Source of the DNA: Rikenellaceae bacterium
GTDB taxonomy: Bacteria > Bacteroidota > Bacteroidia > Bacteroidales > Rikenellaceae
Length of the DNA: 64,000 nucleotides
Direction of reading: 5' to 3'
Assembly (NCBI GenBank): GCA_020859685.1
Contig: JAJBVT010000053.1
Coordinates: 11,809 to 75,808, forward strand
Shown: piece after piece, positions 4,091-62,482 of the stretch
Position numbering within the stretch: position 1 is the first letter of the stretch
Layout: each line of letters begins with the position of its first letter
Notes under the pieces: model-generated
The model's input: only the letters and a program-made list of their open reading frames with translations
Databases searched by the model: none
What the model was told of the DNA's origin: nothing
Made by a program: the position numbers and the translations under genes

Positions 4091-7000
4091 TCAATAAGCC
4101 GTTACCACGTCGGGAGCGTACCCTCCGCTGTCGATCTGCTGCTGCTCGCCGCTGTCGGGGAACCGTACGCACCGCGTTTTTATATAATAGGGCAGATTTG
4201 TATCCGGCCGTCTCATCGCGTTAGGTTTATACTTATACACCAACTCCCACCTGTTTTCAAATATCTGCACCGTCGACATGTAATCCGTAAAGTAGGAGGG
4301 CATAAAGGTCCAGTATTCCGTGCCGTTGGCCAGCCCGAGTGCCGTATCGCGCTCCTGCGATTTTATCTCCACGAACAGTTTGGCCTCACCGGTATACTCG
4401 TTGCGGCCGTCGCCCCAGAGGTACCATTTTCCCTGCCCACGCACGGGGTCGGACGGATCGCTCCCCTCGTAATACGCCGCACATCCTCCGTTGCTGACGT
4501 CGTAGGTGGGATAGCCGGAAGTGTAATCGTAGAGGTTACCCTGGTCATCGGCATAAATCGCCGTATCGTACCCATGGATCCCCATGGCGGTACTCCAGGA
4601 CATATAATAGGTTTCGAACGGAACAGTGACCATCCCTGTCGTTAAATACTGTGTTTCGAACAGGCAGTCTTCACGGGCCAGAATCCTTCCGGTTTCGGGC
4701 ATCTCGAAGGCAATGGACGGCTGCACATAGGTGGCTATGTTCCCCGAAGCGTTATTCGACTGCTCATAGGCCCATGCTTCCCAACCGTTGTTTACCAGCC
4801 TTCGGTACGATATGGGTACATTACGCGAAAGTATGGTTCGGTTGTACCTGCACAGCAATTCAGTGGCTGTATTGGCGGACACCCAATCGGCGTTCCTGTC
4901 GACCTGCACGTCCTGCGGTCCGAGCCTGACCTCGACCGTTCCGTCGTCGAAATCTCCGGCCACCGTTACCACCACCCTCGCTCCGTCATGTGATATATCG
5001 TTCCTTTCGGTCGTACCGGGATGGTAGATTTTATGAGTAATGCCGTCTATCCGGTAAAAGCCTATCTGTGTGGCCGTCCTCAGGGTGGCCCATGCGGTCC
5101 CGTCGGTCGACCATTGCAAGGCGACACTGCGCGAAGGCTGGTCGTCCCACTGACCGTAGGCCTTTACCGGAACGGAGAGGGTTTGTGTCACCCCGTCGTT
5201 GGCGGCAGGTATCGACAACGGGTCGGTGAGCACCTCGAGCGTACCGACGCTGATGGCCCGGATATAAATTTGCGGCCAGGCACTCCCTGCCACGGTGACG
5301 GAATAGTCAGCCGTTCCCGGCTTTGGCGGTATCGCGCCTCCTTCGGCAAGGTCGGTGCTGATTTCGTATCCGTAACCGGACTGTATATCTTCCCGGAAGA
5401 CGATCCATTTCGAGGTTGCCGGGTCCTCATATTCGAAAACAAGGCTTCGGTCCTCGTCGCTGTCCCGTGCCGGTATGGTAAGGGTAGCGGTACTCGGCAG
5501 GCCTCCGGGCGAGTTGGAGGGCACCGAAGCGGCGTCGATGGCCGTGCTCTCGTACCGGTCCCTTACCCTTACGGGTATATTTGCGGTGAACATACCGGTG
5601 ACTGTTACCGTCCGGGTCTGCCCAGTGGAGGGAATATCCCCGGTGGGGGTGACGGTGGGGAGTTCGATTCCGCCCTGCGATTCCTGCTCTATGGCTACCA
5701 CCACCTCCACTCCGGCCGAGATATGGAGGTATGCCCGGCGGACGGTGAGTCCGCTATTGACCTCTACGGTGTAATTCAGCTCCTGCCCGGTGGAAGGGAG
5801 GGTGGTATTCACCGTTACCCAATCGCACGGGATGTCCGGGTCGGTTTCCGAATCGGAAACTTTAATGCTCCAGCCCGCAGTGTAGTTTGTTTTGATTTTC
5901 AGCGAAGTGGTCCACGGCGAGGCGCTGTAAGGAAGGCGTGTTATTTTTTCGGACAACGCAACGTAGTAGTGTCCGTCCGATATATAGTAGTGCATCTCCG
6001 CGTCATGGTCGACCACCAGCACCACACCGGTATTCTCGGGACCGGCCCCGGCCGCAATATCCGCCGTGGCGTATCCCGCACGGGAAATGCTGTTCACCGT
6101 GAAACCGTAAGTGTGGTTGCGCAGCAGCGGCAGGTACTCGTAATCGCCGGAGGAGTTCGTCGCCGCGATATCCACACGGTAATAGGTAACCGTGCTGCTG
6201 CCGTCGTACAGCCCACCGATTACGAGGTAGGTGTTGTCCGGCCCCGCGGTGGCGTCCCCGGCCGGGGTTTCGAAGGTGTATATTTCGTTGACACACGATT
6301 TGTCGGCGACCTCCGCATCGTCATACTTATAGACAATTGGCTGGCTTACCCGGCCCCAACCGGAGGTTATATGCGGCGCGGTGGCCTTACCCACGGCGGG
6401 GTCTGTGGCCGACGCCCCGGAGGGTTTCCATGTGGCGTCCCAACCTGCCGCTGCGGGAATCGCCGCCCCGCGGTCGGCCGCGTTATAAAGGTGCACCTCC
6501 CTGAGCAGGAAGTTGTCGGCGGCGACATTCACGTTAATGCGCGCGAGCATCCTGTGCATCGTTACGTCCTCGATAACGGTCTGCTTCTCCACCGCACGGC
6601 CCGTTTCCTCGCCCCACATCGGTATTGGGGCGGGAGTTGCAGCATCCCATTTTTGTGAGGATACCACTACGAGACCGCTCGCCAAATCGTTCTTGGTGAA
6701 GGTATTGGAGCCCATACCCGTAACGAAAGCCTCCACCGTGGTGCGCAGATTGGCTATTATGACTATATCGCACGAGGCGGTCTCTTCGAGCCGGGCGGTG
6801 AAACGGTAATCGTTGCCGGATTCGGGGTCGGCGGTTATGGTTTTGGCTTCGGCACGGTACAGGAAATTCCCACCGGAGGGGCCGAACACCAGCACATCGA
6901 CCTCCGTCACCAATCCTTCCTGTGCCGCGGTCATAGCCCGGGTACCGGGGATGGCCGTTTCGGGCGTACCGGTCTGCGGAACCTTTATTTCGAAAGTTAC

Positions 7001-7156
7001 GAATCCATCCTCTTCCGGCAGGGTTTCATCCCCGTAATTATCGCCCTTGATGCAACCCGAAAGATTCATCAGAATACCGGCAAACAGAACGCAAAGCACT
7101 GCCGGCCATCCCTGCCAGCCTGCCGCTCTACTCCTGTATGTACACAATCCGGTCAT
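4091..7156 (-). CDS. Fimbrial tip/accessory adhesin-like lipoprotein (fimbrillin-like N-terminus, BACON-like Ig region, DUF1566-like lectin C-terminus)
   Basis: 1021 aa with lipobox LSGC. N-terminal fimbrillin-like segments (VDVLVFG.., IVIIANL.., PMWGE). BACON-like CDWVTV...RRAYLHISAG...IEQ. C-terminal GGCAAYYEG...TRCVRF. Last gene of an operon of Mfa-type genes. Confidence 0.6.
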   Translation of the reverse strand: MTGLCTYRSRAAGWQGWPAVLCVLFAGILMNLSGCIKGDNYGDETLPEEDGFVTFEIKVPQTGTPETAIPGTRAMTAAQEGLVTEVDVLVFGPSGGNFLYRAEAKTITADPESGNDYRFTARLEETASCDIVIIANLRTTVEAFVTGMGSNTFTKNDLASGLVVVSSQKWDAATPAPIPMWGEETGRAVEKQTVIEDVTMHRMLARINVNVAADNFLLREVHLYNAADRGAAIPAAAGWDATWKPSGASATDPAVGKATAPHITSGWGRVSQPIVYKYDDAEVADKSCVNEIYTFETPAGDATAGPDNTYLVIGGLYDGSSTVTYYRVDIAATNSSGDYEYLPLLRNHTYGFTVNSISRAGYATADIAAGAGPENTGVVLVVDHDAEMHYYISDGHYYVALSEKITRLPYSASPWTTSLKIKTNYTAGWSIKVSDSETDPDIPCDWVTVNTTLPSTGQELNYTVEVNSGLTVRRAYLHISAGVEVVVAIEQESQGGIELPTVTPTGDIPSTGQTRTVTVTGMFTANIPVRVRDRYESTAIDAASVPSNSPGGLPSTATLTIPARDSDEDRSLVFEYEDPATSKWIVFREDIQSGYGYEISTDLAEGGAIPPKPGTADYSVTVAGSAWPQIYIRAISVGTLEVLTDPLSIPAANDGVTQTLSVPVKAYGQWDDQPSRSVALQWSTDGTAWATLRTATQIGFYRIDGITHKIYHPGTTERNDISHDGARVVVTVAGDFDDGTVEVRLGPQDVQVDRNADWVSANTATELLCRYNRTILSRNVPISYRRLVNNGWEAWAYEQSNNASGNIATYVQPSIAFEMPETGRILAREDCLFETQYLTTGMVTVPFETYYMSWSTAMGIHGYDTAIYADDQGNLYDYTSGYPTYDVSNGGCAAYYEGSDPSDPVRGQGKWYLWGDGRNEYTGEAKLFVEIKSQERDTALGLANGTEYWTFMPSYFTDYMSTVQIFENRWELVYKYKPNAMRRPDTNLPYYIKTRCVRFPDSGEQQQIDSGGYAPDVVTAY

Positions 7157-7164
7157 TCTATTAT

Positions 7165-10068
7165 TTATTTTTCCCTTACGCAGCGGGCGCGCTTACTGTT
7201 GGTGCTTCTGACATTATCATTCCATCCTTTATATTCGAGGTCGAGAACCCATGAGCGATAACTGTTACTAGAAAATACTTCGCTGTTACTCCAGTAATCC
7301 CATGGGTAAGCGTATGCGATTTTGCCAAGCTCGATAAAACGCTGGCCCATTTCATAAGTCTCCTCTACTGTCGGAATGTAAAAATTTTTGGTCGTACCGT
7401 CTTCGGTATATGCGGCACATCCCCCGTTAGCGGCACTGTACGTTTCGGTATAGTAAAGAGTAGGAGATCTCTTGGCTTGCAGGGGGTATGGACCGTGAGA
7501 AGTGCTATATGTATAACCGTCCGCCGAGGCACCTGCCTGCTGGTAGGTTTCGGTGTTGTATTTGGAGTCTATCCCCATTGCGGTCGCCCAGAGCATGATC
7601 TCTACCCCGTCGTCTCCGACCCTGCCGTTAGGCCCGGCATCCTCGATTGCGACCACACGGCCGGTGGAGAGAGTCACATATCCGAGTTGCTTAATCGTGG
7701 CCATATTCACGTCGGTCCAAGTCGACTCCGCCACACCGTCGATATAACGGCGGTACTGGCATTTTATATCCCTGTGACCCGCGTCAGAACCGTATGTCCC
7801 CGAATAGTTGTAGTTGCTTAGTATAGTCAGGTTCACGGCCATGGCCGAAATATCAGTAATATCCGGGCTTGTGGACGATACCACCGTGGCCCCGTCCGAG
7901 GTTACCGCCCTCACCTGTACCCATCCGGCGGAATAACTTCCGGTTACTGTCACGGTCAGGTCGCCGCCGTAAGGCAGAAATGCCCGGATGGTGAGGTTCT
8001 CCCCGTTCTCGATGGCCGGATCCGACGATGAGGACCCCGTAATTTCGTAGTCCCCCCACTGGTTGCCGTAATTCAGGACCGTAGCGGACGTCCAGTCCGT
8101 ACCGCTTCTCGACCATTGCAGCTCCACCACGCGGGCGGCCTGGTCTTTCCACTGCTCGAAGGTCCCTATGGTTATCGACTGCTGCACGGAGCCCGCGCCA
8201 GCCGGAATAGTTATCGGACCCGCGACCACGGTACCGGTTCCCCGTATCACTCCGCGGACGTAAAGCTCCGGCCAGCCGGTACCGGTGACGTTTATGTTAT
8301 AGGTCTGGTCTCGGGCGGCAATCGTACTGTTGTCCGTCAGGGTGGAGGCGACGTCGAAATCGAACCCCTCCTGAGTGGCCTGCATGATGGCGACCCAACT
8401 CCCGCTGGTTTTGTCGTAATACCTGAACTCGATAACCCTCGGTATATCCTGCGACCAGCCGGGAATGGTTACGGTCACGGAAGACGGGTTGCCCGTAGTG
8501 TAATTGGCGGGGATAAATGAATTGGCCGCGGCCTGTGTGATTTCCGTGTCGTTTGTCAGGTCCCATACCTGTACGGGAATATCGTCGAACAGACCCGTGG
8601 CACGGATTACGCGGTCCTCTCCGTCGCCGGAGATATTTCCCGTCGGAGTGACCGATATACTTTCCAGATAGAGCTGCGCCTGGTCTATGCGTACGGCCAC
8701 CGCAAAACTCCCGGCCCTGATATGGATATATCCGACCCGGTGAATCCACTGGTCGGTCACGGCGACCGAGTAGTTTAGCGCGGTTCCCGTGGGAGAACCG
8801 TCCGCCGTAAGCCAGGTGCATGGAACGTCCAGCTCCGTTTCGGAACCGGAGACCGTAGCGGTACAACCGCCCGGGAAATTAGTGTCCACCGTAACGGTTC
8901 CCGTCCCTCCGAGTATATCGTAAGACGCGGAGGTGGGGTCTACCCATATCCAGTACTGGCCGTCGATATCGAATACCTCGTCCGCACCTTCGTTCCACGG
9001 AATCACATCGGCATAGATATCCGCATCCGTGGCCTCTTCCTCCCCGGTACCGGGTCCCGAGACCTTGTAGATATTGAATATAAAGTTGTGGTTGCGAAGT
9101 ATGTCCCACTGCTTGCCGTCGCGGTCGATGAACGGAAGCCTGTACCATGTAACCTCGCCGGAGTTGTCATAGATGCCCGCAATAAGCAGCCAGGTCCGGT
9201 CCTCCTCGTCTATGCCGGAAGCGGTATTGCTCCGCTCGCCGATATAAATACCGTCGGTTATCGTCACCCCGTCGGATGAGGCGTAATAGGCGTTATCGTA
9301 AACCACACCCGTGGGAACGGTAGGGCTCGTCGCTTTGACGCTGCCGGCCGAGGACGTCTCAATATTATCGGGGTCGGGAATAGCGTATCCGCTGTCGACC
9401 GTGTTGTATATCGCCACGTCCACAAGTTCGAAATCCTTCTGGTCGGGGTCGCTCCTGTCGAGGTTTATCAGTACCGTTACCGCGGCAAGCGACCGAAGCA
9501 TATATATTGTGCCGAGGTCGGTCACTTCCTCCACGATGGCGACCGGCCCGTACTCTCCCCACATGGGCAGGGGCCTGTCGGCGCCGTATTGTCCGGAAAC
9601 TTCATTGGAGGGGTTATGGGTTGGGTCGTAGCTCGTCCGGTGGACGAACTCGATAGTAAGAAGGTCGCGTAACTGTGCGACCGTGGTACTCCCCGAGGTG
9701 AGGATGGTCGCGTCGAGTTCGTCTTTGAGGTTGGCGAGGACGACCAGAACCTGCTCCTGGCTTCCGCTTTTGCTCAGGGTTATATCGAACCATTCGTTCG
9801 AGGAGTCGATAACGCTCGCCGAGGAGCGGTATTGGAACGTTCCGGCGTCGGCGCTGAAAGAGAGAACGTCTATGGTCTGTATGAACGTGTCGGCGAAACC
9901 GCGTGTAGATACGGAAGGATTGCCCGGTACGCGGATGTGCATCCGCACCACCTGACTGTCCGGATCGACAGGCGCCACATCGTAGCTACCATCCTTAATA
10001 CACGCGGCCATGATAACGACCGTTAAGGATAGGCAGAGAAAGCCTGTGATATTCGACATCCTGTTCAT
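7165..10068 (-). CDS. Fimbrial tip/accessory adhesin-like lipoprotein, tandem paralog of 4091-7156
   Basis: 967 aa with lipobox MAAC. Same architecture as its neighbour (IDVLSF.., LVVLANL.., PMWGE, BACON-like CTWLTA...RVGYIHIRAG..IDQ, C-terminal GGCAAYTE...RARCVREK). Confidence 0.6.
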   Translation of the reverse strand: MNRMSNITGFLCLSLTVVIMAACIKDGSYDVAPVDPDSQVVRMHIRVPGNPSVSTRGFADTFIQTIDVLSFSADAGTFQYRSSASVIDSSNEWFDITLSKSGSQEQVLVVLANLKDELDATILTSGSTTVAQLRDLLTIEFVHRTSYDPTHNPSNEVSGQYGADRPLPMWGEYGPVAIVEEVTDLGTIYMLRSLAAVTVLINLDRSDPDQKDFELVDVAIYNTVDSGYAIPDPDNIETSSAGSVKATSPTVPTGVVYDNAYYASSDGVTITDGIYIGERSNTASGIDEEDRTWLLIAGIYDNSGEVTWYRLPFIDRDGKQWDILRNHNFIFNIYKVSGPGTGEEEATDADIYADVIPWNEGADEVFDIDGQYWIWVDPTSASYDILGGTGTVTVDTNFPGGCTATVSGSETELDVPCTWLTADGSPTGTALNYSVAVTDQWIHRVGYIHIRAGSFAVAVRIDQAQLYLESISVTPTGNISGDGEDRVIRATGLFDDIPVQVWDLTNDTEITQAAANSFIPANYTTGNPSSVTVTIPGWSQDIPRVIEFRYYDKTSGSWVAIMQATQEGFDFDVASTLTDNSTIAARDQTYNINVTGTGWPELYVRGVIRGTGTVVAGPITIPAGAGSVQQSITIGTFEQWKDQAARVVELQWSRSGTDWTSATVLNYGNQWGDYEITGSSSSDPAIENGENLTIRAFLPYGGDLTVTVTGSYSAGWVQVRAVTSDGATVVSSTSPDITDISAMAVNLTILSNYNYSGTYGSDAGHRDIKCQYRRYIDGVAESTWTDVNMATIKQLGYVTLSTGRVVAIEDAGPNGRVGDDGVEIMLWATAMGIDSKYNTETYQQAGASADGYTYSTSHGPYPLQAKRSPTLYYTETYSAANGGCAAYTEDGTTKNFYIPTVEETYEMGQRFIELGKIAYAYPWDYWSNSEVFSSNSYRSWVLDLEYKGWNDNVRSTNSKRARCVREK

Positions 10069-10086
10069 TTCTGCACTTGGTCTCTT

Positions 10087-11025
10087 TTATAATTCTCCCG
10101 GCATACTGCTGCCGTCCCAATCCTTAATACTGTTGCCGACAAAAATCCACCCGCCGTAGCGGTCTGCTTCGTAGTAGAGTTCGTAGATATAGTGTTTGTC
10201 GAGGTCCTCGTCGGTCTCGATATCCTCGTAAGCCTGCAAAATCCGCTCGGTTATTTTATCCTCCGTGCGAACTACGTCGCCTTCGAGGATACGCAGGGTA
10301 AGGTCGTCGCCGATAAACAGACGCTGGAGTTTGAACTCCGCCTGAGCGACGTAGGTGTTTTCTTCGGTGAAGCCCGAATAGGTCGGGATATATGATGCGG
10401 TGGCGTTTCCCGCCGCCGGATTGTTTTCGAAATCATAAACGATGTTGCTTCCTTCCACGGAAACAGTGTAATCGGTACCTTCGATGGTACGGGTAGGCTC
10501 GTCCAGGCCCAGCAATCTGATACGGACGATATGAGTGTCACGGATAAGGGAGATGTCGTAAGTCTTAAACGTACTGTCTACTGTCACAGCATCCATACCG
10601 TGGAACAGGTCGGCGACGCCGGTGTGATTTTCACTCGCCTGTATCGTGAATCCCGTGCGGGTAGTGGCCGACGAGGAGCCGATAACTTCGTACCCCGTGC
10701 CGAAAAGGTTGCCCCATACAACCATTTTATACTCGCCCTCTTCAATATCGAGGTAGAGTGTATTGCCGTCTACCAGCGACGACTGCGGCGTGTCGATATG
10801 GTAGACATAGTTGTCGTACATATCGAAAATGTATAGGTGGACGTCTTCCACAAATTCGCTGAACAGGTCGGTAACCTCTTCAGTATGGTCATGGTGGGTG
10901 AATACGAACCGCAAGGCGACCGGCGGAAGCGTCTCCGGGCAGTCCGAATTATCCTCCTTTAGGCACGATGACAGTCCGGCCGTAAGGGCCAGCAGAGCCG
11001 TGAGCGCTCCTGCGATTTTATTCAT
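10087..11025 (-). CDS. FimB/Mfa2-family fimbrial anchor/terminator subunit
   Basis: 312 aa with lipobox LSSC followed by ..DCP... VHLYIFD motif. Size and position immediately after the major subunit gene fit the family. Confidence 0.7.
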   Translation of the reverse strand: MNKIAGALTALLALTAGLSSCLKEDNSDCPETLPPVALRFVFTHHDHTEEVTDLFSEFVEDVHLYIFDMYDNYVYHIDTPQSSLVDGNTLYLDIEEGEYKMVVWGNLFGTGYEVIGSSSATTRTGFTIQASENHTGVADLFHGMDAVTVDSTFKTYDISLIRDTHIVRIRLLGLDEPTRTIEGTDYTVSVEGSNIVYDFENNPAAGNATASYIPTYSGFTEENTYVAQAEFKLQRLFIGDDLTLRILEGDVVRTEDKITERILQAYEDIETDEDLDKHYIYELYYEADRYGGWIFVGNSIKDWDGSSMPGEL

Positions 11026-11060
11026 GGATTTTTGGCTTTTTCCGTTTACCGGTTTCCCGG

Positions 11061-11085
11061 GGGCCCCGCCCTTAAGCAGGGGCCC
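11061..11085 (-). terminator. GC-rich intercistronic hairpin after the major-subunit gene (possible attenuator or RNA-stability barrier)
   Basis: GGGCCCC...GGGGCCC 7-bp perfect GC stem in the 88-nt gap between the Mfa1-like and Mfa2-like genes. No clear U-run. Confidence 0.3.
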
Positions 11086-11113
11086 TCGGTTCCGGATAAG
11101 TATTTCAGAGTTA

Positions 11114-12481
11114 TTAAAGTTCGCCGGGCATATAAACGCCTTCCCAGTTGAGTACCTGGATAGTTACGTGGATGTATGCATCCGGGTCGAGCGGTTCGGG
11201 ATTCTCCGGCCTTCCGCCGTCTTCCTCGTTCCAGCCGAGGCTGGTCACTTTGGTAATCTCGATATCCCAGTACTGGTTGCGGTGCTGTGAGTATTTGTCC
11301 GCGGTAGTGGTCGGGGGAGTGTTACCCAGGGAGCTGTCGAGGTAGATCCAGTAGTACATCAAACCGCCATCGTATTTGAAAGCCGCTTCGTTGGCGCCGA
11401 GTTGGATTACCGGGTCCCCACTGTAAAGTTTATTGTCGGCAGCCCAGTTCACCAGGTCGCCGTTCGAATCTACGGTACCTATCCTCCAGAAATCGTCACC
11501 GGGATTCCATGTACCGGAAGTCACCAGAGCTCCGTTCGCGTCATACCATACGGTGGGAGAGAACACACCTTTAATCGATGCGTAGGTAGCGTTACCGTAA
11601 CGGGCGGTCATATTACTGTTCTCCATCATATAGGTAGGCTCTTCATGGTTGTAGCTGCCGTCGAGGCCGGTTTTCGACCAGTCGGCCTGAGCCCAGTAGT
11701 TGTTGGCATGCACATCGGCCCAAATGCTGTTGTTCCTGTCGAAATACGGGGTCCTCCAAACACCGGACGCATCATAGGTGGTGAAGAGGTACATCTGGTC
11801 GGGCTGGTTTTTGATACGGTACTCCACGTCCGACATGGTTCCGAGAACCGTCGCTCCGGTGGCGTTCCCGTCGGTTACTTCGATGTCTTCATCGTAGTAA
11901 ACACCTACTTTGGCAACCGACCGACCGAGCTTGATGGTGATGTTGTTGTGGTGGTTCGGAGTTTCAGCCTCGTTCTTGGTCGCGCTTACCACCGTATGCG
12001 AAAGCAGCTCGGAAGCCATCCAGAAAGAGTTGTCGACGGTGAGGGTGTCGTTGAAAGCGACCTCGTCTGCGATGTTCACGATATAGCTTTCGAAATTGGC
12101 GGCCGTCATACCTTTGGTCCACACCGGAGTCATATTCGCGGTAGCGGCGAATATTTTAGGACCGGTGGTGATAAGGGCAGTCTGGCTCAGCACGGAGGGT
12201 GTGAAATTCAGCACGTCTTCGATGGTCTGGGTAGCGACGTCGTAGATGTAGAGGTCGATGGTTGAAACTGTTCCCTCTTCCGTCGTAGGCGCGGTATCAC
12301 CGTGGAACGCGCGGGAGTTTGCGTTGGCGATGCTGATGGTGAACGTAGTGTAGGTCTGTTCTCCCGTTGCCTCGGGTGTGGTTTCATCGGGATCGAGATC
12401 GATGTCTTTGTCACCGCTCTTCGAACAAGCAGCAAGTGTCAGGACAGCCAGAGCTGCCACAAGGGTTGATCTGAAGTTCAT
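11114..12481 (-). CDS. Mfa1-family fimbrial major subunit
   Basis: 455 aa with lipobox LAAC. N-terminal TYTTFTISIANANSRA (Arg-type propeptide site) and IDLYIYD. Paralogous to 59879-61405, including similar C-terminal ends. Confidence 0.7.
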   Translation of the reverse strand: MNFRSTLVAALAVLTLAACSKSGDKDIDLDPDETTPEATGEQTYTTFTISIANANSRAFHGDTAPTTEEGTVSTIDLYIYDVATQTIEDVLNFTPSVLSQTALITTGPKIFAATANMTPVWTKGMTAANFESYIVNIADEVAFNDTLTVDNSFWMASELLSHTVVSATKNEAETPNHHNNITIKLGRSVAKVGVYYDEDIEVTDGNATGATVLGTMSDVEYRIKNQPDQMYLFTTYDASGVWRTPYFDRNNSIWADVHANNYWAQADWSKTGLDGSYNHEEPTYMMENSNMTARYGNATYASIKGVFSPTVWYDANGALVTSGTWNPGDDFWRIGTVDSNGDLVNWAADNKLYSGDPVIQLGANEAAFKYDGGLMYYWIYLDSSLGNTPPTTTADKYSQHRNQYWDIEITKVTSLGWNEEDGGRPENPEPLDPDAYIHVTIQVLNWEGVYMPGEL

Positions 12482-12557
12482 GTTTTAATTGTTTTAAGTG
12501 AAACTTGAGTTGATTGATCTTCTTTTTTGGTTTGGTTAATTACTATTTGGATCTATA

Positions 12558-14231
12558 CTATCTTTTATATCGCTCCATAAGTATTTCGTTTTCCCGTTTG
12601 CATTCCAGCTCTTCGAGATTGTGGGCGGCTTCTTCGGAACCCGCCTCCCGGGCCTGACCCAGATAAAGCGACGCGGTATCCAGGTCCCCCGACAGAAGGT
12701 ACCATACGCCCGTGTTGTTAGCCGCGTCGGGAACGTCCTCCAGCCTGTCGAGGTATCGTCGGGCCGCCGCCATCTCTCCCCGCCGGATAAGCACCGCAGA
12801 GTAGTTGAGCATGGACACGGGGTCGTCGGGATAGAGGCGGATTATGGTCTCGAATATCTGCTCCCACTGCGGCGAACCGTATTCGTAGGATTGCGCCAGC
12901 AGGTAGAGTTCCCTCTGCGACAGCATTTCCGGGTTCCTGTCGGCCAGTTCGCGCGACTCTTCGAGGGTGTAATCCTTTACCGTAAAATCTATCTGGTACT
13001 CAACCCTTCTCAATTGCGGAAACATACCGTCCCTCAGCGTAAGCCATGCCGCGCCGAATCCTTTGAGCCGCTGCTCCTTGCGGTCGGGCTCTCCCGTACT
13101 GTCGATAACTGCCAGAATATCGTCCCGGCGAGCGATATCGCTCTGCTCGACCAACAATCTCAGCCCGTCCCAGTCTTCGGCGACCGAACTGGACCTGATA
13201 ATATTGGCCGGTATGCCGAAGTTCCGGGTTATATAATCCAACAGGGCCTCGGAACGTTCCCGTGCAAGGCGCTCGTTGGTCGCGTAACTCCCGTCCGGTG
13301 AGGCGTAGCCCTCCACGAAGAGCCCTACAATTTCCACATCGCTGTCGGACTGCACCGCTTTGATTGCCGCCTCTATCTTGGAAAGTTCCTCGGGATTACG
13401 GCGGTATGTGGGCACGATTACCGAACGCCCCACGGCGAAATCGAGAAACGCCTGCCCCTGCATCCTCCGGCTTTTCTGCTCCCGCTCCGGCACCACGAAC
13501 GACAATTTGGGCTGAACCTCGTATGGTTCCCGCGGCTGTAATTTCACACGCCCTGCATTTGCGAGGGTATACAACTGCTCTTTCCCGGCCGGTGAGCCCA
13601 CGACCTGATGGATATCGAGAACCGCGTCGTCCATCCACATCCGATAGGGCATCCGCAGGTTGTAGCGCACCAGCGTATCGGTGGAGGTGGTTACCGCAAT
13701 CCTCACGTCGGGAAGATTATCGAGCAGACGGGTGTCCTGAAACTTATAGCGCCGTTTATAAAGCTGCTCCCTCCCCCAGCCGTTTACCATAAGACCGGCT
13801 CCGGTAGCCGTACTGTCCCCGGCGATAAGCTCGGGGATTACGAGCCAGCTCAGCCGCCGGTTCATAACGTCGCCGTCCAGCTTCATCTCGATCTCCATAA
13901 ACAGTTCGTCGTCCTGTTCGGCAATTTCTACCACCGTAACCTTCATCTGCCCGGCGTACTCCGAGCGGTCGACCCTGCGGCGGGATTGATGCCTTTGCAG
14001 AGGAACCGCAAACACGGCCGGGACCGAGAACCTCTGGACAGTCGGACTGCCGGCATCCATTACCTTGAGGTCGCCCAGTTCCATGTGGAGAGAATCGCCC
14101 GACATCCTTATCGTAAAGGATTCTATAACGAATTTACCGTCGTTCAGTTCGATGCGTCCCGTAACCGGCCCGATCTGCGCAAATACGGTGAAGGCGATAA
14201 GTGATAGTATTATGGTATATATATATTTCAT
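12558..14231 (-). CDS. DUF3868-like protein with OmpA-like peptidoglycan-binding domain and C-terminal TPR-like region
   Basis: 557 aa with a signal peptide. OmpA-like block VEIVGLFVEGYASPDGSYATNERLARERSEALLDYI. Sits between the DUF3575 and Mfa1 genes, as in other Bacteroidales fimbrial loci. Confidence 0.65.
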   Translation of the reverse strand: MKYIYTIILSLIAFTVFAQIGPVTGRIELNDGKFVIESFTIRMSGDSLHMELGDLKVMDAGSPTVQRFSVPAVFAVPLQRHQSRRRVDRSEYAGQMKVTVVEIAEQDDELFMEIEMKLDGDVMNRRLSWLVIPELIAGDSTATGAGLMVNGWGREQLYKRRYKFQDTRLLDNLPDVRIAVTTSTDTLVRYNLRMPYRMWMDDAVLDIHQVVGSPAGKEQLYTLANAGRVKLQPREPYEVQPKLSFVVPEREQKSRRMQGQAFLDFAVGRSVIVPTYRRNPEELSKIEAAIKAVQSDSDVEIVGLFVEGYASPDGSYATNERLARERSEALLDYITRNFGIPANIIRSSSVAEDWDGLRLLVEQSDIARRDDILAVIDSTGEPDRKEQRLKGFGAAWLTLRDGMFPQLRRVEYQIDFTVKDYTLEESRELADRNPEMLSQRELYLLAQSYEYGSPQWEQIFETIIRLYPDDPVSMLNYSAVLIRRGEMAAARRYLDRLEDVPDAANNTGVWYLLSGDLDTASLYLGQAREAGSEEAAHNLEELECKRENEILMERYKR

Positions 14232-14270
14232 TATTGTGGGGTATTGATATATGTGGTTTCGTTTCCCGTA

Positions 14271-14858
14271 TTATCTTTTGGATTTTATAAGGTATATAAA
14301 GGACACCCCGACCTTTGTGGGCCCGAACCAGTGTTTGTGGTTCCGCTCGAGAAAGTCGCCGCATTTCCAGCACTCGTACCGGTCGTAATTATAATAGGCA
14401 TAGCCGATTCCGGCCGTAGCCTCGAGGTTCCAGTGCGGGCTGAGGTACCACTGGTAGCCGTAAGAAAAACCGACTCCCGCGCCGTAACCCTCGTAACGGC
14501 TCTCTTTGAGACTGCCCAGCGGTGCAAGGGGTATATTTACACCTCCCGCGTTATAGCTGATGAACATACCGTGGACCCCCAGAAAATGGCCGTCCCATCT
14601 TTCGTAGGGCCAGAAACGTACTTCGGGGCGCACGACCCAATGCTGTATTTTTTTGTTATCCTCCGCAGCACCGAACCGCCACGGATTGTAGGAACCCGAA
14701 ACCTCGAAGCTCGTTTTCCTGCCCAGAGCAATCTCCACTGCCATATTCGGCGTGGTCGTGGCCCAGCCTATGAGATTACTCTTTACGGCAACCTGCTAGC
14801 AGAAACCTGCGAACGGTACTATAATGGGTATAAGGATAGCGGGGATATATTTCTTCAT
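14271..14858 (-). pseudogene. DUF3575-family outer-membrane protein interrupted by one in-frame TAG (codon 21)
   Basis: ATG at 14858 gives MKKYIPAILIPIIVPFAGFC, then TAG (14796-14798), then in the same frame QVAVKSNLIGWATTTPNMAVEIALGRK...YNPW...HWVVRPEVRFW (DUF3575 hallmarks). The track ORF 14271-14744 is only the part after the stop and lacks a signal peptide. Confidence 0.65.
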
Positions 14859-15012: not shown

Positions 15013-15381
15013 TCAACCGGTGCTGTTTTCCACCAGATTCTTCCATACCTTTTCCGAGCGCATAAAGCCGGGAAAATCATGGCCGGGCCGCCCATCGCAA
15101 TCCTTGAAACAGGGTGCGCACATCACCAGCAGGTCCCACATCGACAGTTCGTAGAACTTCTTTCGAAGGTGCAGCAGCCCTCCAGACTCCGATAGTATAC
15201 CGTAATCGGTAAGCAACGCAAGCGACGTACGTACCATCGGTAACTCACCCTCGGCGAATCCCTTTAACAGGTTGCTCCGTTCTATACCTTTACCCTCTCC
15301 ATCGGCATACATGAAGGATACCACTCCCAAGAGGGTATAAAGGAATTCGAATTGTGGGGTAAACAATACTTCGTCCTTCAT
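15013..15381 (-). CDS. Small conserved protein, first gene behind the invertible promoter (possible winged-helix regulator)
   Basis: 122 aa from the ATG at 15381 (MKDEVLFTPQFEFLYTLLG...). Paralog of 61763-62134 in the same position in locus 2. The longer track ORF (to 15594) would run through the inverted repeat and the promoter. Confidence 0.6.
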   Translation of the reverse strand: MKDEVLFTPQFEFLYTLLGVVSFMYADGEGKGIERSNLLKGFAEGELPMVRTSLALLTDYGILSESGGLLHLRKKFYELSMWDLLVMCAPCFKDCDGRPGHDFPGFMRSEKVWKNLVENSTG

Positions 15382-15418
15382 TTTTCTGCCGTTTCGGAGG
15401 CTTTTTGTTTTACCTGCC

Positions 15419-15435
15419 GTCACTTCGGGAGTGAC
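15419..15435. repeat. Inverted repeat, operon-proximal (switch A)
   Basis: GTCACTTCGGGAGTGAC, the exact reverse complement of 15748-15764. Confidence 0.85.
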
Positions 15436-15466
15436 AATTCGGAAAACATCAATTACTAATCCTGAG

Positions 15467-15747: not shown

Positions 15748-15764
15748 GTCACTCCCGAAGTGAC
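15748..15764. repeat. Inverted repeat, recombinase-proximal (switch A)
   Basis: GTCACTCCCGAAGTGAC, separated from the integrase stop by 29 nt. Confidence 0.85.
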
Positions 15765-15793: not shown

Positions 15794-17026
15794 TTATGCG
15801 GCCTCGATAAATCTCGAGAGCCGGTTGCTCAGTTCGTCTATTTCGGAGCGTTCGAACGAGGCGAGGTAAATGGAGGTAACTTTCGGGTCGCGGTGCCCGA
15901 GCCCTTCGCCAATCAACATGATACCGTACCCCATTCTTTTAGCTAAAGTCGCCCATGTGTGGCGGGCAACATGCGTGGAAAGGCTGCTTGTTATTCCCGC
16001 CAGCAGGGATATCTCCTTCAACAACCTGTTCTGCCGGTTCAAAGCGGCTTCGTACCCGGATGGATGAGAAACGCCCTCCGCCATTATCGGGAAGACATAC
16101 GGAGACCGGTTTGTCTCTTTTTTGAAATAGCCGATAATCCTCTTCATGGGTTTGGTAATCCTGACCTGCAGAAAAAAACCGGTCTTACGCCTTTTATATC
16201 GGATGGTATCGCCTTTTATATCGGATTTTTTCAGGTGGGCCAGGTCTATGAACGACATACCGCGGGAGTGGTATGCAAACAGGAAATACATCAGTGCGTG
16301 CCGGAGATTCCTTTTTCCCGCGGGAATCTTTTTCCCGAGCGCGACCAGCGAGTTCATTTCCTTTTGGTCGAGCGCCCGTCTTCGGGTCTCGTACACACCG
16401 GTATAAACATCCTCGAAGGGGTTGGATTCACATTTGCGAATCAGGTTCGCCTTAACGGCGCGGTAATATATCGCCCGGATATTTCGCATATAAAAAGAGA
16501 TTGTATTCATCTGGAGGCCATTGTCCAGAAGGTGCCTCTCGAATGCCCTAATCAGTTTGGGGGTTATATCCGACACTTTTAAGTCCTCCGACCCGGCGAA
16601 CGCGGCCAGCTTCTTCGCGGCGCAGCGGTAGGCCCTTGCCGTCCTGTGGCGCTCCTGTTCCTCCAGCTCGCGGCTGAGAAGTGATGAGAACGATAATAAA
16701 TTGTAGGGCGAGAGCGAACCGTTGAATTCATCGACGATATCTCCGAGACCGTACTCCCCCGCAGCGGAAAGTTTCCGCAGGATAGAGGAGAGGCGTTCGA
16801 GGTCGGCGTTCATCATTTCCTCCAATTGCAGAAGGTGCCGGGTCCGCCCGTTTTCCGCATCGCACGGAATAACCAACCTGCGGCGGACAGGGTCCCACTC
16901 TTCGGGGTAGACCGGGTAGCCCCTCCTTAAATCCCGGTATTTACGCCTGAGGATTAACCGGATAAACAGGGTACCCGGTTTGTCCGGCCCATCCGGACTA
17001 CGGAAATGAAATCTGAAACTTGTCAT
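15794..17026 (-). CDS. Tyrosine site-specific recombinase (phage-integrase family), candidate invertase of switch A
   Basis: Catalytic blocks HVARHTWATLAKRMGY and GLGHRDPKVTSIYLA (H-x-x-R, H, Y). Start chosen at MTSFRFHF by alignment with the paralog 62483-63721 (MTSIRFHY). Confidence 0.85.
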   Translation of the reverse strand: MTSFRFHFRSPDGPDKPGTLFIRLILRRKYRDLRRGYPVYPEEWDPVRRRLVIPCDAENGRTRHLLQLEEMMNADLERLSSILRKLSAAGEYGLGDIVDEFNGSLSPYNLLSFSSLLSRELEEQERHRTARAYRCAAKKLAAFAGSEDLKVSDITPKLIRAFERHLLDNGLQMNTISFYMRNIRAIYYRAVKANLIRKCESNPFEDVYTGVYETRRRALDQKEMNSLVALGKKIPAGKRNLRHALMYFLFAYHSRGMSFIDLAHLKKSDIKGDTIRYKRRKTGFFLQVRITKPMKRIIGYFKKETNRSPYVFPIMAEGVSHPSGYEAALNRQNRLLKEISLLAGITSSLSTHVARHTWATLAKRMGYGIMLIGEGLGHRDPKVTSIYLASFERSEIDELSNRLSRFIEAA

Positions 17027-23647: not shown

Positions 23648-23775
23648 ATAAAAAGCACGGGGGACCTCACGGCCGCCCGTACCGATGTTTCAACCAGATT
23701 CTTCGAATTTGCATTCGAAGACTGTTCAAATAAATATGATATAAATCCCCGGCACTACCCCTAGTGCCACATCAC
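23648..23775 (-). ncRNA. Conserved structured 3-prime element, copy 2 of 3 (orphan; no upstream CDS)
   Basis: Stem GGCAC/GTGCC (23751-23768) around ACTACCCCTAG (23754-23764). TCAACCA at 23690-23696. Hairpin at 23657-23680 followed on the minus strand by a U-run. Lies 94 nt downstream of switch B. Confidence 0.45.
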
Positions 23776-23869: not shown

Positions 23870-24169
23870 GTCACTTAAGGAGTGACGGATAGGCAAACAG
23901 AAACCTGTCGGTACAAATGTAAAAATAAAATTTATTTATCTAATCATAACCGCAAAAATCTTAATTTCCGATGCTGTAATCCCATTCGGGGCCAATGCAG
24001 TATTCGTATCTTTAATCACCGTTGCCCCGGACAAATCCAAGAACCGGATTTCCCGTGTAGATATTTGCGGAATGTTTGTTACCGGTTACGTCGGAAGAAA
24101 TTTAAAGTAACTGTTAACCAATAAATTATAGCCGTAGTCAGATTCCAGTATTGTCACTCCTTAAGTGAC
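23870..24169. promoter_or_regulatory. Orphan invertible promoter segment (inverton B)
   Basis: GTCACTTAAGGAGTGAC (23870-23886) and its exact reverse complement GTCACTCCTTAAGTGAC (24153-24169) bracket 266 bp. There is no recombinase gene or fimbrial CDS next to it. Confidence 0.65.
23914..23921 (-). promoter_or_regulatory. -7 box TACATTTG inside inverton B
   Basis: Plus-strand CAAATGTA 27 nt from the left repeat. The surrounding sequence gtacaaatgtaaaaataaaattt resembles gagcaaatgtaaaaaataatttc in switch A. Confidence 0.5.
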
Positions 24170-53147: not shown

Positions 53148-56093
53148 TCACTCGTCCACCACACAGCGGATGGGATAGGCTAAAGGCTTATTACCGAATG
53201 AAGTTTGACATTCGTCCTTCCTTGTTAATATCGACCAGGCCATAGCACCGCCGGTGTAAGATGTAGCCGTCCAGTATTGTCCGTAGTATGCGGTACCCGA
53301 TATTTGGCCGGTGGTATTCCGGAATCCGGCGATAGGGAAGAAAAGCGAGGCGTTATTGTAGGGATTGTAGAACAACCGGCCTATATAGCCCACATTATAT
53401 TTATCACTGAGTACGGCCGCATCGGCTTCTCCCGTTATCGTGCCGGTTATCATATGCCGATCGAAGAAACCGTCTGCAAGATAACCCCAGAAACTGTTTT
53501 GGATATTATTGTTCACCCCTACCACCAGATTGAGCCAGAGGGACTGGCGTTGCTCAAAATCATCGACAGGTGTATTATTAGCAATCTCAACCGATGTCGA
53601 CCCGTCCGTGGCACGGCGGTATCCCGGCGGGCAGGTCTCATGGGTCGATTTCAGATCGTATGAATCTTCCCAGTTCCCGGTTGCTCGGGTGTTCTGCCAA
53701 CCGGTGATTGCCGTCCCAACACCCGGGTTGGTCGGATGCCATGCGTAACGGGGAAAGCTCGCGTTGGCCCACTGGAAATAAGCGCCCACCTGGGACGGAT
53801 ACTCCGTAAACGTGCCGCCATTCAGGGCGAGCTGGGAGTGATCCGAAGTGGCGGTCCCCCCGGGTTTGGTACCGTCTAAATATTCCTGCGAAGTGATATT
53901 GTAAGGCGAAATTTTCACCGTATGGGTCCGCGCCGCAATGGCGCCGTTGGGCACGGGATCCTCGCTGCGCATAAGGTAGTCCGGGTCGTGGCCCTGACGA
54001 ACGTATATCATTCCCGCGTTTTTCCCGTCGTTGTAGTTTACCAGTATCTTACCGTACCTTGCCGGGGCTTCGTCGGTAGGGGTATAGGGGCCCGTCAGCC
54101 CTATTCGGAAATAGAGCGGTTCGGTAGAGTTATACACTCCGCTAATCGCGTTACTGCCCGAGGTCAGTCTGTAAAGGGCGTCGTTCGCCGGATCGTTCAT
54201 ATCGGCCGGACTCTCGCCCGCCGCCCAGGTGACCCCCGGGTCTTTCGTCGGCTCCGTATCGAGCATAATCCAATCTTCCCCGTCTACGACCCTCGCCGTC
54301 CATCCCGCCGCTACGGTATTGGTAAAGTTCGGAATGTGAATCAACCGCTCCCCGCTCTGCTCGGCCCTCCAGAACGCGCCGACGTACATATACGGAGTGG
54401 CATAGTCGGGCAGGTCACCCACATTCACATAGTTCTGACCCACATACATTTTTATCCGCGACAGGGTGCCGTCCTGATTTTTGCGTACCGCATATAGCTC
54501 ACCCCCGGTGCGGTAAGTACCGGTTTGGTCCCTTTCCAATATATAGGGTTCGGCCATCAGGTATAATTTACCGGGAGAGGTGAGCGTAATCCTGTCCTCT
54601 ATCCGTGAAGTTCCGTCCGGGGAGACGGCCAGATAATTATCCGTGCCCCGGCTCGTTATCTGACACTCTACGTAATCGCCGTCGAGCTCCAGATATCCGG
54701 AGCTGTCGAGTCTGTCCACTACCGATACCGTAACCTCCTGTTCAAGGTTCCCCAGAGTGACCGTAATGGTGCCGCCGGTTGCGCCGGTTGAAATCATGAC
54801 GCTTACCGTAGTTACCCCGCCGGATGTTTCCGCAAGGTTGATCGTAGTCGGAATCGGGTAGATCCCGGTTGTACTGGACAATACGGTCGCCGTTGTAATT
54901 CCCATAGCCGCCGTTGCGTCGGTAGTAATTATAAACGCCTCAGAAAGTGTTGTCCCGGGGGAGCCGTATAGAACCACCTCCGAATTGGACAGGCCGAGAT
55001 AATACTGTCCGTTCGAAACTATCTCATGGGCATAGGCATCGGTAACCTCTATTTCGTATTCGATGTTGGAAAGGGGAGCGTCGATAGCCTCCTGCATCGA
55101 GGCGTAACCACGTCCGGCGGCTGTTATGGTGAATGTGTAATTCTTATTCCGCTCTATCTCCCGGTAGACCTCATCTATGACGAACCCGAGTTTGTAATAG
55201 TAGCTCTTATCTATATAAACGGCTTTTATTATAACGGCAGTCCCGAGGTCGTCGGCAGCCTCGTAGATATATAGCGGGGTGTCGGCCGTAGTGTTGCCCG
55301 TGGCGGGGGCCATACCGCTTACTCCGTCGCCGGTGGTGGCGGTAAGGTAGCTGGTTGTATTGGATGTGTTGTCCTGTACGGCCGTGCCCGCGGGCCGGTA
55401 GAAGCTCCCGTTCCGGGGAGCGTTTACGAGTCCTGCGCCTTCGAGGGTGAACCCGGTCAGGCCGCTGTCTACGTTCACCGTCGCTTTTGCCACCGAGCGG
55501 GTAAGCAGTAATTTGTCGGACGAAGTGCCCAACTCGGTGGTATCGTCTATCTTCGTCACCTCTTTGATGCCCGCGAGGGGGAGTTTGGTCTGTGGCGCGG
55601 TGAAAGGCGCCACGGCCTGCAAAGAGGAGTTGAGCAGTTGCGTGCGCAGGACATCCTTAACGTCGTCGAGTGTCTTGCCCTCCATCGCCTGAGTGATATC
55701 ATAGGCGGAGAATTGGGTGTCCGTGCCGGAATTGCGGAATTTATCGCCGGGAACGTTGGCGACGAGCAGTATGGTACTCGGCTGGTCGGTCATACTGAGG
55801 GTTACGACCGTCTCCGTGCCCGACACCTCGGCCTGGGCCGCCTCCGTGAAGCTCGCCGTGTTGCCGTGGCCTTCGAAAACCAGCACCACCGGAAGGTCGA
55901 TACCGTCCTCATCCGCAGCGGCCCGTGTGCCGGGAGCGGCGTAATCCGCGGAGTTGGTGTAGAGCGTCAGCCGCACCTTGCCGTCGGGCACGTCCGGAAT
56001 TCTGTTATCCGTATCGTCCCGGATACACGATATCCCTGCAAGCACCAGCGCGCCCAGAGTGAATAATCTCGATAATATCTGTCGTGAGTCCAT
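53148..56093 (-). CDS. Fimbrial tip/accessory adhesin-like lipoprotein with Fib_succ/DUF1566-like lectin C-terminus
   Basis: 981 aa with lipobox GISC and a fimbrillin-like N-terminus (LPVVLVFEG.., ILLVANV.., LPLAG). YVGAFWRAEQSGER repeat region. C-terminal ETCPPGYRRATDG...ASLFFPIAGFR...YWTATS...YPIRCVVDE. Confidence 0.6.
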   Translation of the reverse strand: MDSRQILSRLFTLGALVLAGISCIRDDTDNRIPDVPDGKVRLTLYTNSADYAAPGTRAAADEDGIDLPVVLVFEGHGNTASFTEAAQAEVSGTETVVTLSMTDQPSTILLVANVPGDKFRNSGTDTQFSAYDITQAMEGKTLDDVKDVLRTQLLNSSLQAVAPFTAPQTKLPLAGIKEVTKIDDTTELGTSSDKLLLTRSVAKATVNVDSGLTGFTLEGAGLVNAPRNGSFYRPAGTAVQDNTSNTTSYLTATTGDGVSGMAPATGNTTADTPLYIYEAADDLGTAVIIKAVYIDKSYYYKLGFVIDEVYREIERNKNYTFTITAAGRGYASMQEAIDAPLSNIEYEIEVTDAYAHEIVSNGQYYLGLSNSEVVLYGSPGTTLSEAFIITTDATAAMGITTATVLSSTTGIYPIPTTINLAETSGGVTTVSVMISTGATGGTITVTLGNLEQEVTVSVVDRLDSSGYLELDGDYVECQITSRGTDNYLAVSPDGTSRIEDRITLTSPGKLYLMAEPYILERDQTGTYRTGGELYAVRKNQDGTLSRIKMYVGQNYVNVGDLPDYATPYMYVGAFWRAEQSGERLIHIPNFTNTVAAGWTARVVDGEDWIMLDTEPTKDPGVTWAAGESPADMNDPANDALYRLTSGSNAISGVYNSTEPLYFRIGLTGPYTPTDEAPARYGKILVNYNDGKNAGMIYVRQGHDPDYLMRSEDPVPNGAIAARTHTVKISPYNITSQEYLDGTKPGGTATSDHSQLALNGGTFTEYPSQVGAYFQWANASFPRYAWHPTNPGVGTAITGWQNTRATGNWEDSYDLKSTHETCPPGYRRATDGSTSVEIANNTPVDDFEQRQSLWLNLVVGVNNNIQNSFWGYLADGFFDRHMITGTITGEADAAVLSDKYNVGYIGRLFYNPYNNASLFFPIAGFRNTTGQISGTAYYGQYWTATSYTGGAMAWSILTRKDECQTSFGNKPLAYPIRCVVDE

Positions 56094-56121
56094 ATACTTT
56101 TTAGTATTTGTATCCTTACTA

Positions 56122-58704: not shown

Positions 58705-58716
58705 ATCTGCTTATTT

Positions 58717-59637: not shown

Positions 59638-59775
59638 GTCATTCGGTTCTTTGTTTACCGGCCGGGCCGGTGGGCTTCGTTCTTCACCCTATACCGTATG
59701 GTAAGGATGTATCGGGATAACTGCGGGATGTACGCGGTTATTCCCGGATTGGCTGTATGACGATTGTCCGTACGG

Positions 59776-59855
59776 TGCTCCCTCCTTTCGGGAGGGAGCG
59801 GACCGCGCGAACGATGGTAGGATTAATCCGGTGCCCGGCCGGTTGCGGCCGGGCA
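59776..59855 (-). terminator. Two GC-rich intercistronic hairpins after the major-subunit gene of locus 2 (possible attenuators)
   Basis: GCTCCCTCC-TTTCG-GGAGGGAGC (59776-59798) and TGCCCGGCC-GGTTGC-GGCCGGGCA (59832-59855), both in the 241-nt gap between the Mfa1-like and Mfa2-like genes. No U-runs. Confidence 0.3.
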
Positions 59856-59878
59856 TGGATTATAAGTCATAATTTGAT

Positions 59879-62479: not shown

Positions 62480-62482
62480 TTT

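Follow-up and report, generated by a model that had tools for sequence, protein, structure and literature searches.

Six palindromic repeats as candidate recombination sites of three putative invertible promoters in a Rikenellaceae bacterium

Closest described systems and the layout of the three loci

Phase-variable surface structures shape host colonisation, phage evasion and immune evasion in gut Bacteroidales, a subject on which the Rikenellaceae have been poorly studied. In Bacteroides, GTTAC[N7]GTAAC repeats are flipped by Tsr26/BT1928-29, as at the S-layer promoter of BT1927 / BF4087 (PMC4611039). Tsr19 (BF2766) of B. fragilis and BVU2677/BVU2684 of Phocaeicola vulgatus belong to invertible promoters of EPS and Mfa1-pilus loci with the motif TACTTNNNANGTAANNGAA, and for the Tsr-controlled Mfa1 pilus switches two paralogous recombinases have been described as redundant on both loci, one enzyme acting at a distance (PMC12940148, PMC4747536).

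The window analysed here, that is the whole stretch of 64,000 nucleotides, comes from an Alistipes-like Rikenellaceae bacterium, and its loci are chromosomal. It offers a clean three-locus example, with paralogous recombinases, a clear site consensus and an orphan switch that has decayed (Table 1). The system belongs to the published GTTAC-N7-GTAAC / Tsr inverton class as a Rikenellaceae representative and is real and largely ordinary. Its points in common with the Bacteroides invertons are a promoter segment measuring about 250-300 bp, repeats in which a variable 7-nt spacer separates palindromic arms of 5 nt, an adjoining tyrosine recombinase gene and the control of a surface structure (PMC4611039). 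The structural features of Tsr-type invertible promoters were all found, except for the exact repeat motif and a second orientation in the strain itself. The motif GTTAC-N7-GTAAC is absent from the window, where all six sites read GTCAC-N7-GTGAC, one transition per arm away, and the degenerate form GTYAC-N7-GTRAC has 6 matches against 0.18 expected. Unlike the Bacteroides invertons, the window has C/G and not T/A in its arms, belongs to a Rikenellaceae host with 54% G+C, and is associated with type V pili instead of an S-layer protein.

As in the Tsr19/BVU systems, tyrosine recombinases stand beside invertible promoters of Mfa-type pilus operons, and the sites of the window's family, GTCACTT-NNN-AAGTGAC, share an ACTT-NNN-A.GT core with TACTTNNNANGTAANNGAA. 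The window differs from those systems in its three loci with differing centres, one of them an orphan, in the winged-helix-like gene heading each operon and in being known from sequence alone. The likeness to the Tsr26 and Tsr19 systems is one of layout and repeats. A literature search for the GTCACT/AGTGAC motif, whose coverage did not extend to the published inverton catalogues, returned no relevant paper.

One Alistipes locus has three assemblies, in two of which (L110 and L111, 4038-4052; the third is L112) the inner arm of a site reads GTTAC, not GTCAC. This is a natural single-base polymorphism in a putative recombinase-binding arm, and the variant matches the published Bacteroides arm.

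On the minus strand, loci 1 and 3 are built alike: the recombinase gene is followed by a site, the segment, the second site, a small gene and a type V pilus operon. In the ON direction a surface-structure operon, made of type V pilus genes, stands at these two loci and none at locus 2. Each of the three segments (about 266-312 nt, with inverted repeats at the ends) carries a single Bacteroides-type -7 box TAnnTTTG, which reads TACATTTG, TACATTTG and TACCTTTG at loci 1, 2 and 3, respectively. Judged by the direction of the box, locus 1 is ON and locus 3 OFF in the present assembly. A -7 box is found at an equal offset in five related loci (L003, L004, L006, L108 and L112), and its direction varies between copies, some facing the operon and some the recombinase. 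Outside the promoter region the three window segments have no common sequence. The genes between the loci are housekeeping ones, including PPDK, glycogen genes and RNase H, with enolase, thyA, folA and uvrD lying between loci 1 and 3.

Table 1. Features of the three loci, in window coordinates
Feature	Coordinates	Strand	Description
Locus 1 operon-side site	15419-15435		GTCACT-TCGGG-AGTGAC; perfect inverted repeat 15418-15437
Locus 1 recombinase-side site	15748-15764		GTCACT-CCCGA-AGTGAC
Locus 1 putative invertible segment	15436-15747	-	312 nt
Locus 1 -7 box TACATTTG	15474->15467	-	31 nt from site; faces pilus operon (ON)
Tyrosine recombinase 1	15794-17026	-	410 aa; Phage_int_SAM_5 + Phage_integrase; stop codon 29 nt from site
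First gene past switch 1	15013-15381	-	122 aa; no family match; paralogue of 61763-62134
Type V pilus operon, locus 1	4091-14744	-
Locus 1 operon: DUF3575 gene	14271-14744	-
Locus 1 operon: OmpA-like gene	12558-14231	-
Locus 1 operon: Fimbrillin_C gene	11114-12481	-
Locus 1 operon: Mfa2 gene	10087-11025	-
Locus 1 operon: large FimA-like proteins	7165-10068 and 4091-7156	-
Locus 2 (orphan) left site	23870-23886		GTCACT-TAAGG-AGTGAC
Locus 2 right site	24153-24169		GTCACT-CCTTA-AGTGAC; no recombinase gene adjoining
Locus 2 putative invertible segment	23887-24152	-	266 nt
Locus 2 -7 box TACATTTG	23921->23914	-	27 nt from left site
Locus 3 operon-side site	62163-62179		GTCACT-CTTCA-AGTGAC
Locus 3 recombinase-side site	62459-62475		GTCACT-TGAAG-AGTGAC
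Locus 3 putative invertible segment	62180-62458	+	about 280 nt
Locus 3 -7 box TACCTTTG	62420-62427	+	31 nt from right site; faces recombinase, not operon (OFF)
Terminator-like element	62454-62487	+	recombination site itself as stem, plus T7 run; faces OFF-state promoter
Tyrosine recombinase 3	62483-63721	-	412 aa; stop codon 7 nt from site
First gene past switch 3	61763-62134	-	123 aa; winged-helix-like; 37% identical to 15013-15381
Type V pilus operon, locus 3	53148-61405	-
Locus 3 operon: FimA/Fimbrillin_C gene	59879-61405	-
Locus 3 operon: Mfa2 gene	58717-59589	-
Locus 3 operon: FimA-like gene	56122-58704	-	TGA interruption at 58147-58149
Locus 3 operon: ORF	53148-56093	-

The small first genes past the two switches have no Pfam or NCBIfam match and very few database relatives. 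For the 123-aa protein of locus 3, an AlphaFold model built from 3 sequences only has a pLDDT of 80.6, and its best matches are the Rrf2-family winged-helix regulators CymR, IscR and NsrR (TM 0.6-0.68, E about 1e-2). The first-gene protein may be a regulator that is made in the ON state only, for example for cross-talk between pilus loci or for feedback on the switch.

The FimA-like gene of locus 3, otherwise continuous over 860 aa, is broken by its TGA codon. A contig of run SRR15219646 (L015) has TGG (Trp186) at this position and one other base difference over 2.2 kb; the TGA is a nonsense variant, in a pilus operon whose switch is OFF.

Site structure, evidence for inversion and the recombinases

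The initial annotation had described six copies of GTCACT-N5-AGTGAC, and an exact pattern scan for GTCACTNNNNNAGTGAC recovered precisely these, with 6 matches in the window, all at the coordinates claimed, against 0.01 expected and with none of 100 dinucleotide shuffles reaching six. The centres are indeed reverse-complementary inside each pair (TCGGG/CCCGA, TAAGG/CCTTA and CTTCA/TGAAG), giving three inverted pairs. The perfect inverted repeat measures 20 nt at locus 1, 17 nt at locus 2 and about 19-22 nt at locus 3, and the distance between the extended arms is 308, 266 and 277 nt, respectively. When two mismatches were tolerated, only one further match to the 17-mer appeared in the window, which is the chance level (1.16 expected), so no unpaired exact copy is present there. 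In 625 kb of related Bacteroidales loci, 17 copies seemed unpaired; all are accounted for, either by a partner with a one-base arm variant or by a contig that stops before the partner. Many unpaired copies, which would have told against the motif, were not seen: there is no solitary site in the window and none left unexplained in the related DNA.

The 5-nt core originally attributed to the sites was borne out as a variable asymmetric centre, but not in its length, since the freely variable part is 3 nt in the family (4 in the window). The half-site consensus obtained from 46 distinct sites is CYGTCACTT, and the family site would be roughly CYGTCACTT-NNN-AAGTGACRG, with 9-nt imperfect arms around a 3-nt free centre. 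One inner arm position is broken in each window site, which leaves 4 free positions there. Distinct centres numbered 29 (16 of the TCACT type and 13 of the TCTCT type); a T stands at the 5' end on one strand in all 29 and T...A at both ends in 18, the chance of T-first or A-last being 0.44 per site. Having an odd length, the centre is never self-complementary, and every site is therefore directional.

The best explanation overall, and one we regard as quite probable, is that three invertible promoter switches (invertons) have the six 17-mers as their core recombination sites. A recombinase dimer would bind the two palindromic arms of each site (half-site CYGTCACTT), two sites would synapse, and strands would be cut and exchanged across the central region, the overlap probably being the 7-bp stretch TT-NNN-AA that the GTCAC arms enclose. 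Since the centres are reverse-complementary and the sites directional, a pair could only invert its promoter segment. In this scheme we infer the acting enzyme, the cut position, the flipping of the strain's own loci and the insulation by the centres; the sites and their pairing, the genes around them, the promoter boxes and the natural inversion of homologous sites in relatives are observed. The earlier assignment of the repeats to a tyrosine recombinase agrees with recombinase genes abutting two of the three pairs, with a -7 box 27-31 nt from one site at all three loci and with the flipping of relatives. Among the points against this explanation are that 6-nt arms would make a short half-site for a tyrosine recombinase and that the orphan locus 2 has no target gene.

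No flipped copy of the window's own loci was found among 15 contigs from about 10 runs of one study, all of them oriented as the window is (L014-L022 and L103-L107, runs SRR15219644-82). These contigs were retrieved by exact-protein look-ups with both recombinases, both small first genes and the locus 2 epimerase. One of them, L017, ends exactly at the inner edge of a repeat, which is the sole hint of heterogeneity in orientation. Several other contigs end near repeats, but not where a mixture of two orientations predicts, and contig breaks were left out of the evidence for inversion.

Relatives were sought by a pair scan of 185,579 species genomes (one per species) for two sites 260-290 nt apart, a spacing that misses loci such as locus 1 (312 nt) and a class with sites 1.0-1.2 kb apart. 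The scan returned 13 loci, of which 7 are from Bacteroidia, all with reverse-complementary centres: 3 in Rikenellaceae/Alistipes MAGs, each with an adjoining recombinase 55-85% identical to the window's, and 4 in Bacteroidia bacterium PG1894_40. The 6 loci from outside Bacteroidia were set aside as unrelated repeat families, their centres being directly repeated and not reverse-complementary. A metagenome scan using the alignment of the recombinases gave 80 further loci (35-48% identity), most of them with TCTCT-N5-AGAGA pairs just past the recombinase gene; the closest relatives among them have GTCACTT-NNN-AAGTGAC pairs 1.0-1.2 kb apart, as does L113, found by protein look-up (53% recombinase identity).

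Orthologous segments of these relatives, oriented by the recombinase gene, occur in both orientations (6 vs 24, 12 vs 1, 10 vs 2 and 4 vs 1) in metagenome assemblies, the first three counts belonging to TCTCT-N5-AGAGA switches beside recombinases 36-40% identical. The change from collinear to reverse-complement sequence falls inside the 15-17-nt repeat in these assemblies, and the end points of inversion had been placed within the repeats from the start. In L024 and L025 an identical 1181-bp segment stands in opposite orientations between ATCACT/GTCACT-TGATA-AGTGAC sites, which confines the crossover to 16 nt.

Loci with GTCACTT-NNN-AAGTGAC sites 1.0-1.2 kb apart (L113/L114 3855-5082, also L023-L030, L038, L045 and L055) have recombinases of 40-53% identity. 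The invertible segment of L114 contains an AraC-family (HTH_18) gene and has a DUF3575 pilus operon downstream, so an inversion there would flip a regulator gene and not a bare promoter.

At locus 3 the hairpin of the terminator-like element has a 12-bp stem and a 3-nt loop (-16.6 kcal/mol, z = -3.0). Directly downstream of the OFF promoter, it would keep antisense transcripts from running on into the recombinase gene. The recombinase-side site is preceded by an A-run (a T-run on the opposite strand) in L003, L006, L027, L108, L112 and L116 as well; loci 1 and 2 have no such run. In B. fragilis, repeats between promoter and gene have been reported to lower expression (PMC4747536). It is true that every site folds as a hairpin, that 62454-62487 with its T-run scores as a terminator, and that the PG1894_40 copies (91-98% identical) look like dispersed elements. 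We nevertheless find it barely credible that the palindromes act as terminators or attenuators, or bound a miniature transposable element, instead of being recombination sites: hairpins have no need of reverse-complementary loops, yet these are present in all pairs, homologous segments are inverted exactly at the repeats, and the repeats keep a fixed place with respect to the recombinase gene. A MITE reading was rejected, there being no target-site duplications and no sequence common to the three segments beyond the promoter region.

Recombinases 1 and 3 are paralogues with 57% identity, and both have the domains Phage_int_SAM_5 and Phage_integrase (E 1e-12 to 1e-17). An adjoining recombinase gene is present at loci 1 and 3 and absent at locus 2. 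R256, K282, H354, R357, H380 and Y389 (412-aa numbering) are invariant in the recombinase alignment and, by resemblance of motifs, probably make up the catalytic set R, K, HxxR, H/W, Y. The closest proteins come from Alistipes and Rikenellaceae MAGs, are 61-73% identical and bear the generic name 'site-specific integrase'. No specific NCBIfam model covers the two enzymes, for which Xer/integron matches stay below threshold, and a PDB sequence search gave distant Xer/IntI matches only. Like FimB/FimE of the E. coli fim switch, where a promoter segment of roughly 300 bp is inverted to turn a pilus ON or OFF, the proposed enzymes are tyrosine recombinases; unlike the window, fim has 9-bp repeats without palindromic arms and small recombinases of about 200 aa. 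Against the FimB/FimE-type NCBIfam models the window recombinases score 18.7-23.9 bits, with cut-offs of 221-222, and they are not members of that family. Features of the Mpi type are lacking as well, its repeat ARACGTWCGT having 0 matches in the window. Among the ORFs of the 64-kb window that were scanned, neither another recombinase gene nor a serine recombinase was found.

The first reading had allowed for a shared or paralogous enzyme, which fits the two paralogues, the orphan switch with identical arms and the published precedent of two redundant recombinases (PMC12940148). It could also be asked whether a distant recombinase flips the segments, be it a master invertase of the kind of Mpi in B. 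fragilis or a single Tsr, with the adjoining integrases otherwise employed. Neither locus 2 nor the four PG1894_40 loci have an adjoining recombinase, and BF2766 of B. fragilis acts on a distant promoter (PMC4747536). We consider this highly improbable all the same. In the window the recombinase gene stops 7-29 nt short of a site, in most relatives (35-85% identical) no more than about 80 nt short of one, and the arms change with recombinase divergence, being GTCACT at identities of at least 40% and TCTCT at 36-40%. The window moreover has no further recombinase gene among its scanned ORFs and no Mpi-type repeat.

Locus 2 as a putative relic

Locus 2 lies between the 3' ends of convergent rhamnosidase and epimerase genes (the epimerase ends at 24323), and its -7 box faces a non-coding stretch of about 310 nt, beyond which lies the rhamnosidase 3' end. 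Around it only unsupported ORFs of 20-100 aa were found, with no gene to regulate in either orientation, and its flanks hold no remnant of a recombinase or of the small first gene. Nothing in the window reaches the Rfam gathering score. A regulated RNA at locus 2 was considered and rejected, the Rfam matches around it being no better than chance.

The locus has an orthologue in Alistipes sp. C.6_1 (L004), with which it shares the centre TAAGG and the rhamnosidase flank. The orthologue keeps its recombinase gene, whose available part is 72% identical, and downstream it has an N-terminal fragment (MRNDDKILFGNRF...) left over from the small gene that opens the pilus operons. Because the orthologue keeps both, locus 2 is taken as a decayed pilus switch that has lost its recombinase and its operon and retained perfect sites and a promoter box. 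Its sites and promoter being intact, the paralogues could still act on it in trans and flip it.

About 190 nt downstream of the orphan switch, a GC-rich inverted repeat with a T-run (23650-23683, minus strand) is conserved in L004. The terminator scan made no call at this position; the element may be the former terminator of the lost operon, in which case the relic promoter would yield a short non-coding transcript only.

Central bases and recombination between loci

Spacer variants of lox and FRT (Cre, Flp), whose arms are the same and whose centres differ, each recombine with their own kind only. In lox/FRT, as under the overlap-identity rule of lambda Int and XerCD, a site takes its direction from an asymmetric centre, and inverted sites invert. 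One report restates this rule for tyrosine recombinases and describes how IntDOT, a tyrosine recombinase of Bacteroides and a relative of the present enzymes, relaxes it, heterologous overlaps recombining there given one identical base at the cleavage site (PMC2817482). In the window, shared arms and differing centres would let each pair recombine only with itself, as heterospecific lox/FRT variants do; the latter are engineered, with 13-bp arms and 8-bp spacers, and those of the window would be natural.

That the differing centres keep the loci from recombining with one another is plausible from the sequences, and we see it as about equally probable as its contrary. A more general proposal, to which we give slightly less than an even chance, is an address code in which constant arms and 3-4 free, pair-matched central bases make every switch orthogonal, with the palindrome also serving as terminator stem for the OFF promoter. 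If true, it would allow many independent switches per genome, including tandem ones 170 bp apart and orphans flipped in trans, and the essential genes between switches (here enolase, thyA, folA and uvrD) would be neither deleted nor inverted; matched centres at loci 1 and 3 would permit the deletion or inversion of 46 kb of such genes. The address code is the sole part of the system of wider interest. Should the central 3-4 bases give pair specificity, the enzymes and their orthogonal sites could serve Bacteroidales engineering as multi-channel DNA switches, and the matching of centres would improve automatic inverton calling. Should they not, the family would join IntDOT as heterology-tolerant, which raises the question of what prevents genome scrambling.

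In favour of insulation, all sites of the collected loci have one and only one partner whose centre matches. Pair detection demanded matching centres, and a separate same-arm check, limited to sites with intact arms, removes most of this bias; the only same-arm pairs with non-matching centres were cross-combinations of tandem switches and two chance AT-rich matches. Tandem switches with one recombinase, the same arms and different centres occur in at least 3 independent locus kinds, with the centre pairs CATTA + TTGTA, TTTTA + CCATA and TCCCA + CCGTA. Both switches occur either way round, and the state of one does not follow that of the other: L063 has only the second flipped, and in L051 both have turned without trading places. 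Between strains the second switch has different centres (TTGTA, TTATA, TTGTG, CCGTA or TCGTA), and the two partners have always changed together. The number of different centres per genome is 3 in the window, 2 in Alistipes C.6_1 and 2 in Alistipes GCA_021201825 (on one contig, 55 kb apart). Bacteroidia bacterium PG1894_40 is a counter-example, its four loci having the identical centre TCTTA.

Different centres are the null expectation for old paralogues, for which divergence suffices without selection. The inversion sites could then be real and their centre differences neutral drift, under an enzyme that tolerates heterology like IntDOT and with distance, topology or selection limiting inter-locus events. 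We hold this to be unlikely, although it has several observations in its favour. IntDOT requires only one identical base, at the cleavage site (PMC2817482), and all sites have in common a T/A adjoining the arms; PG1894_40 bears its four same-centre loci apparently unharmed, and the recombinase paralogues are so diverged that the loci are old enough for their centres to have drifted. Drift is less easily reconciled with partners that match perfectly in every pair even where orthologues differ, no mismatched partner having been found, or with tandem switches about 170 bp apart whose centres are never the same and whose order survives flipping. The centre TAAGG is moreover conserved between the window and L004 despite about 20% divergence of the flanks.

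The tandem-switch loci (L049-L052, L057, L063, L072, L077, L079-L081 and L102; L047; L096) have TCTCT/AGAGA arms and resemble the published two-switch class IP-ARG-2 (PMC8748976).

In PG1894_40 the four segments are about 300 bp long (L001 2051-2355, L002 2842-3145, L007 7185-7487 and L008 5907-6210), have the boundaries GTCACTTCTTAAGTGAC / GTCACTTAAGAAGTGAC, and all have the same orientation, with no recombinase within 8 kb. In L001 and L002 the segment lies upstream of paralogous genes for putative surface (signal-peptide) proteins. The consensus promoter (TTTG...TACCTTTG) is outside the segment, and the first site together with an internal T9 run forms a terminator. These segments may be invertible terminators rather than invertible promoters.
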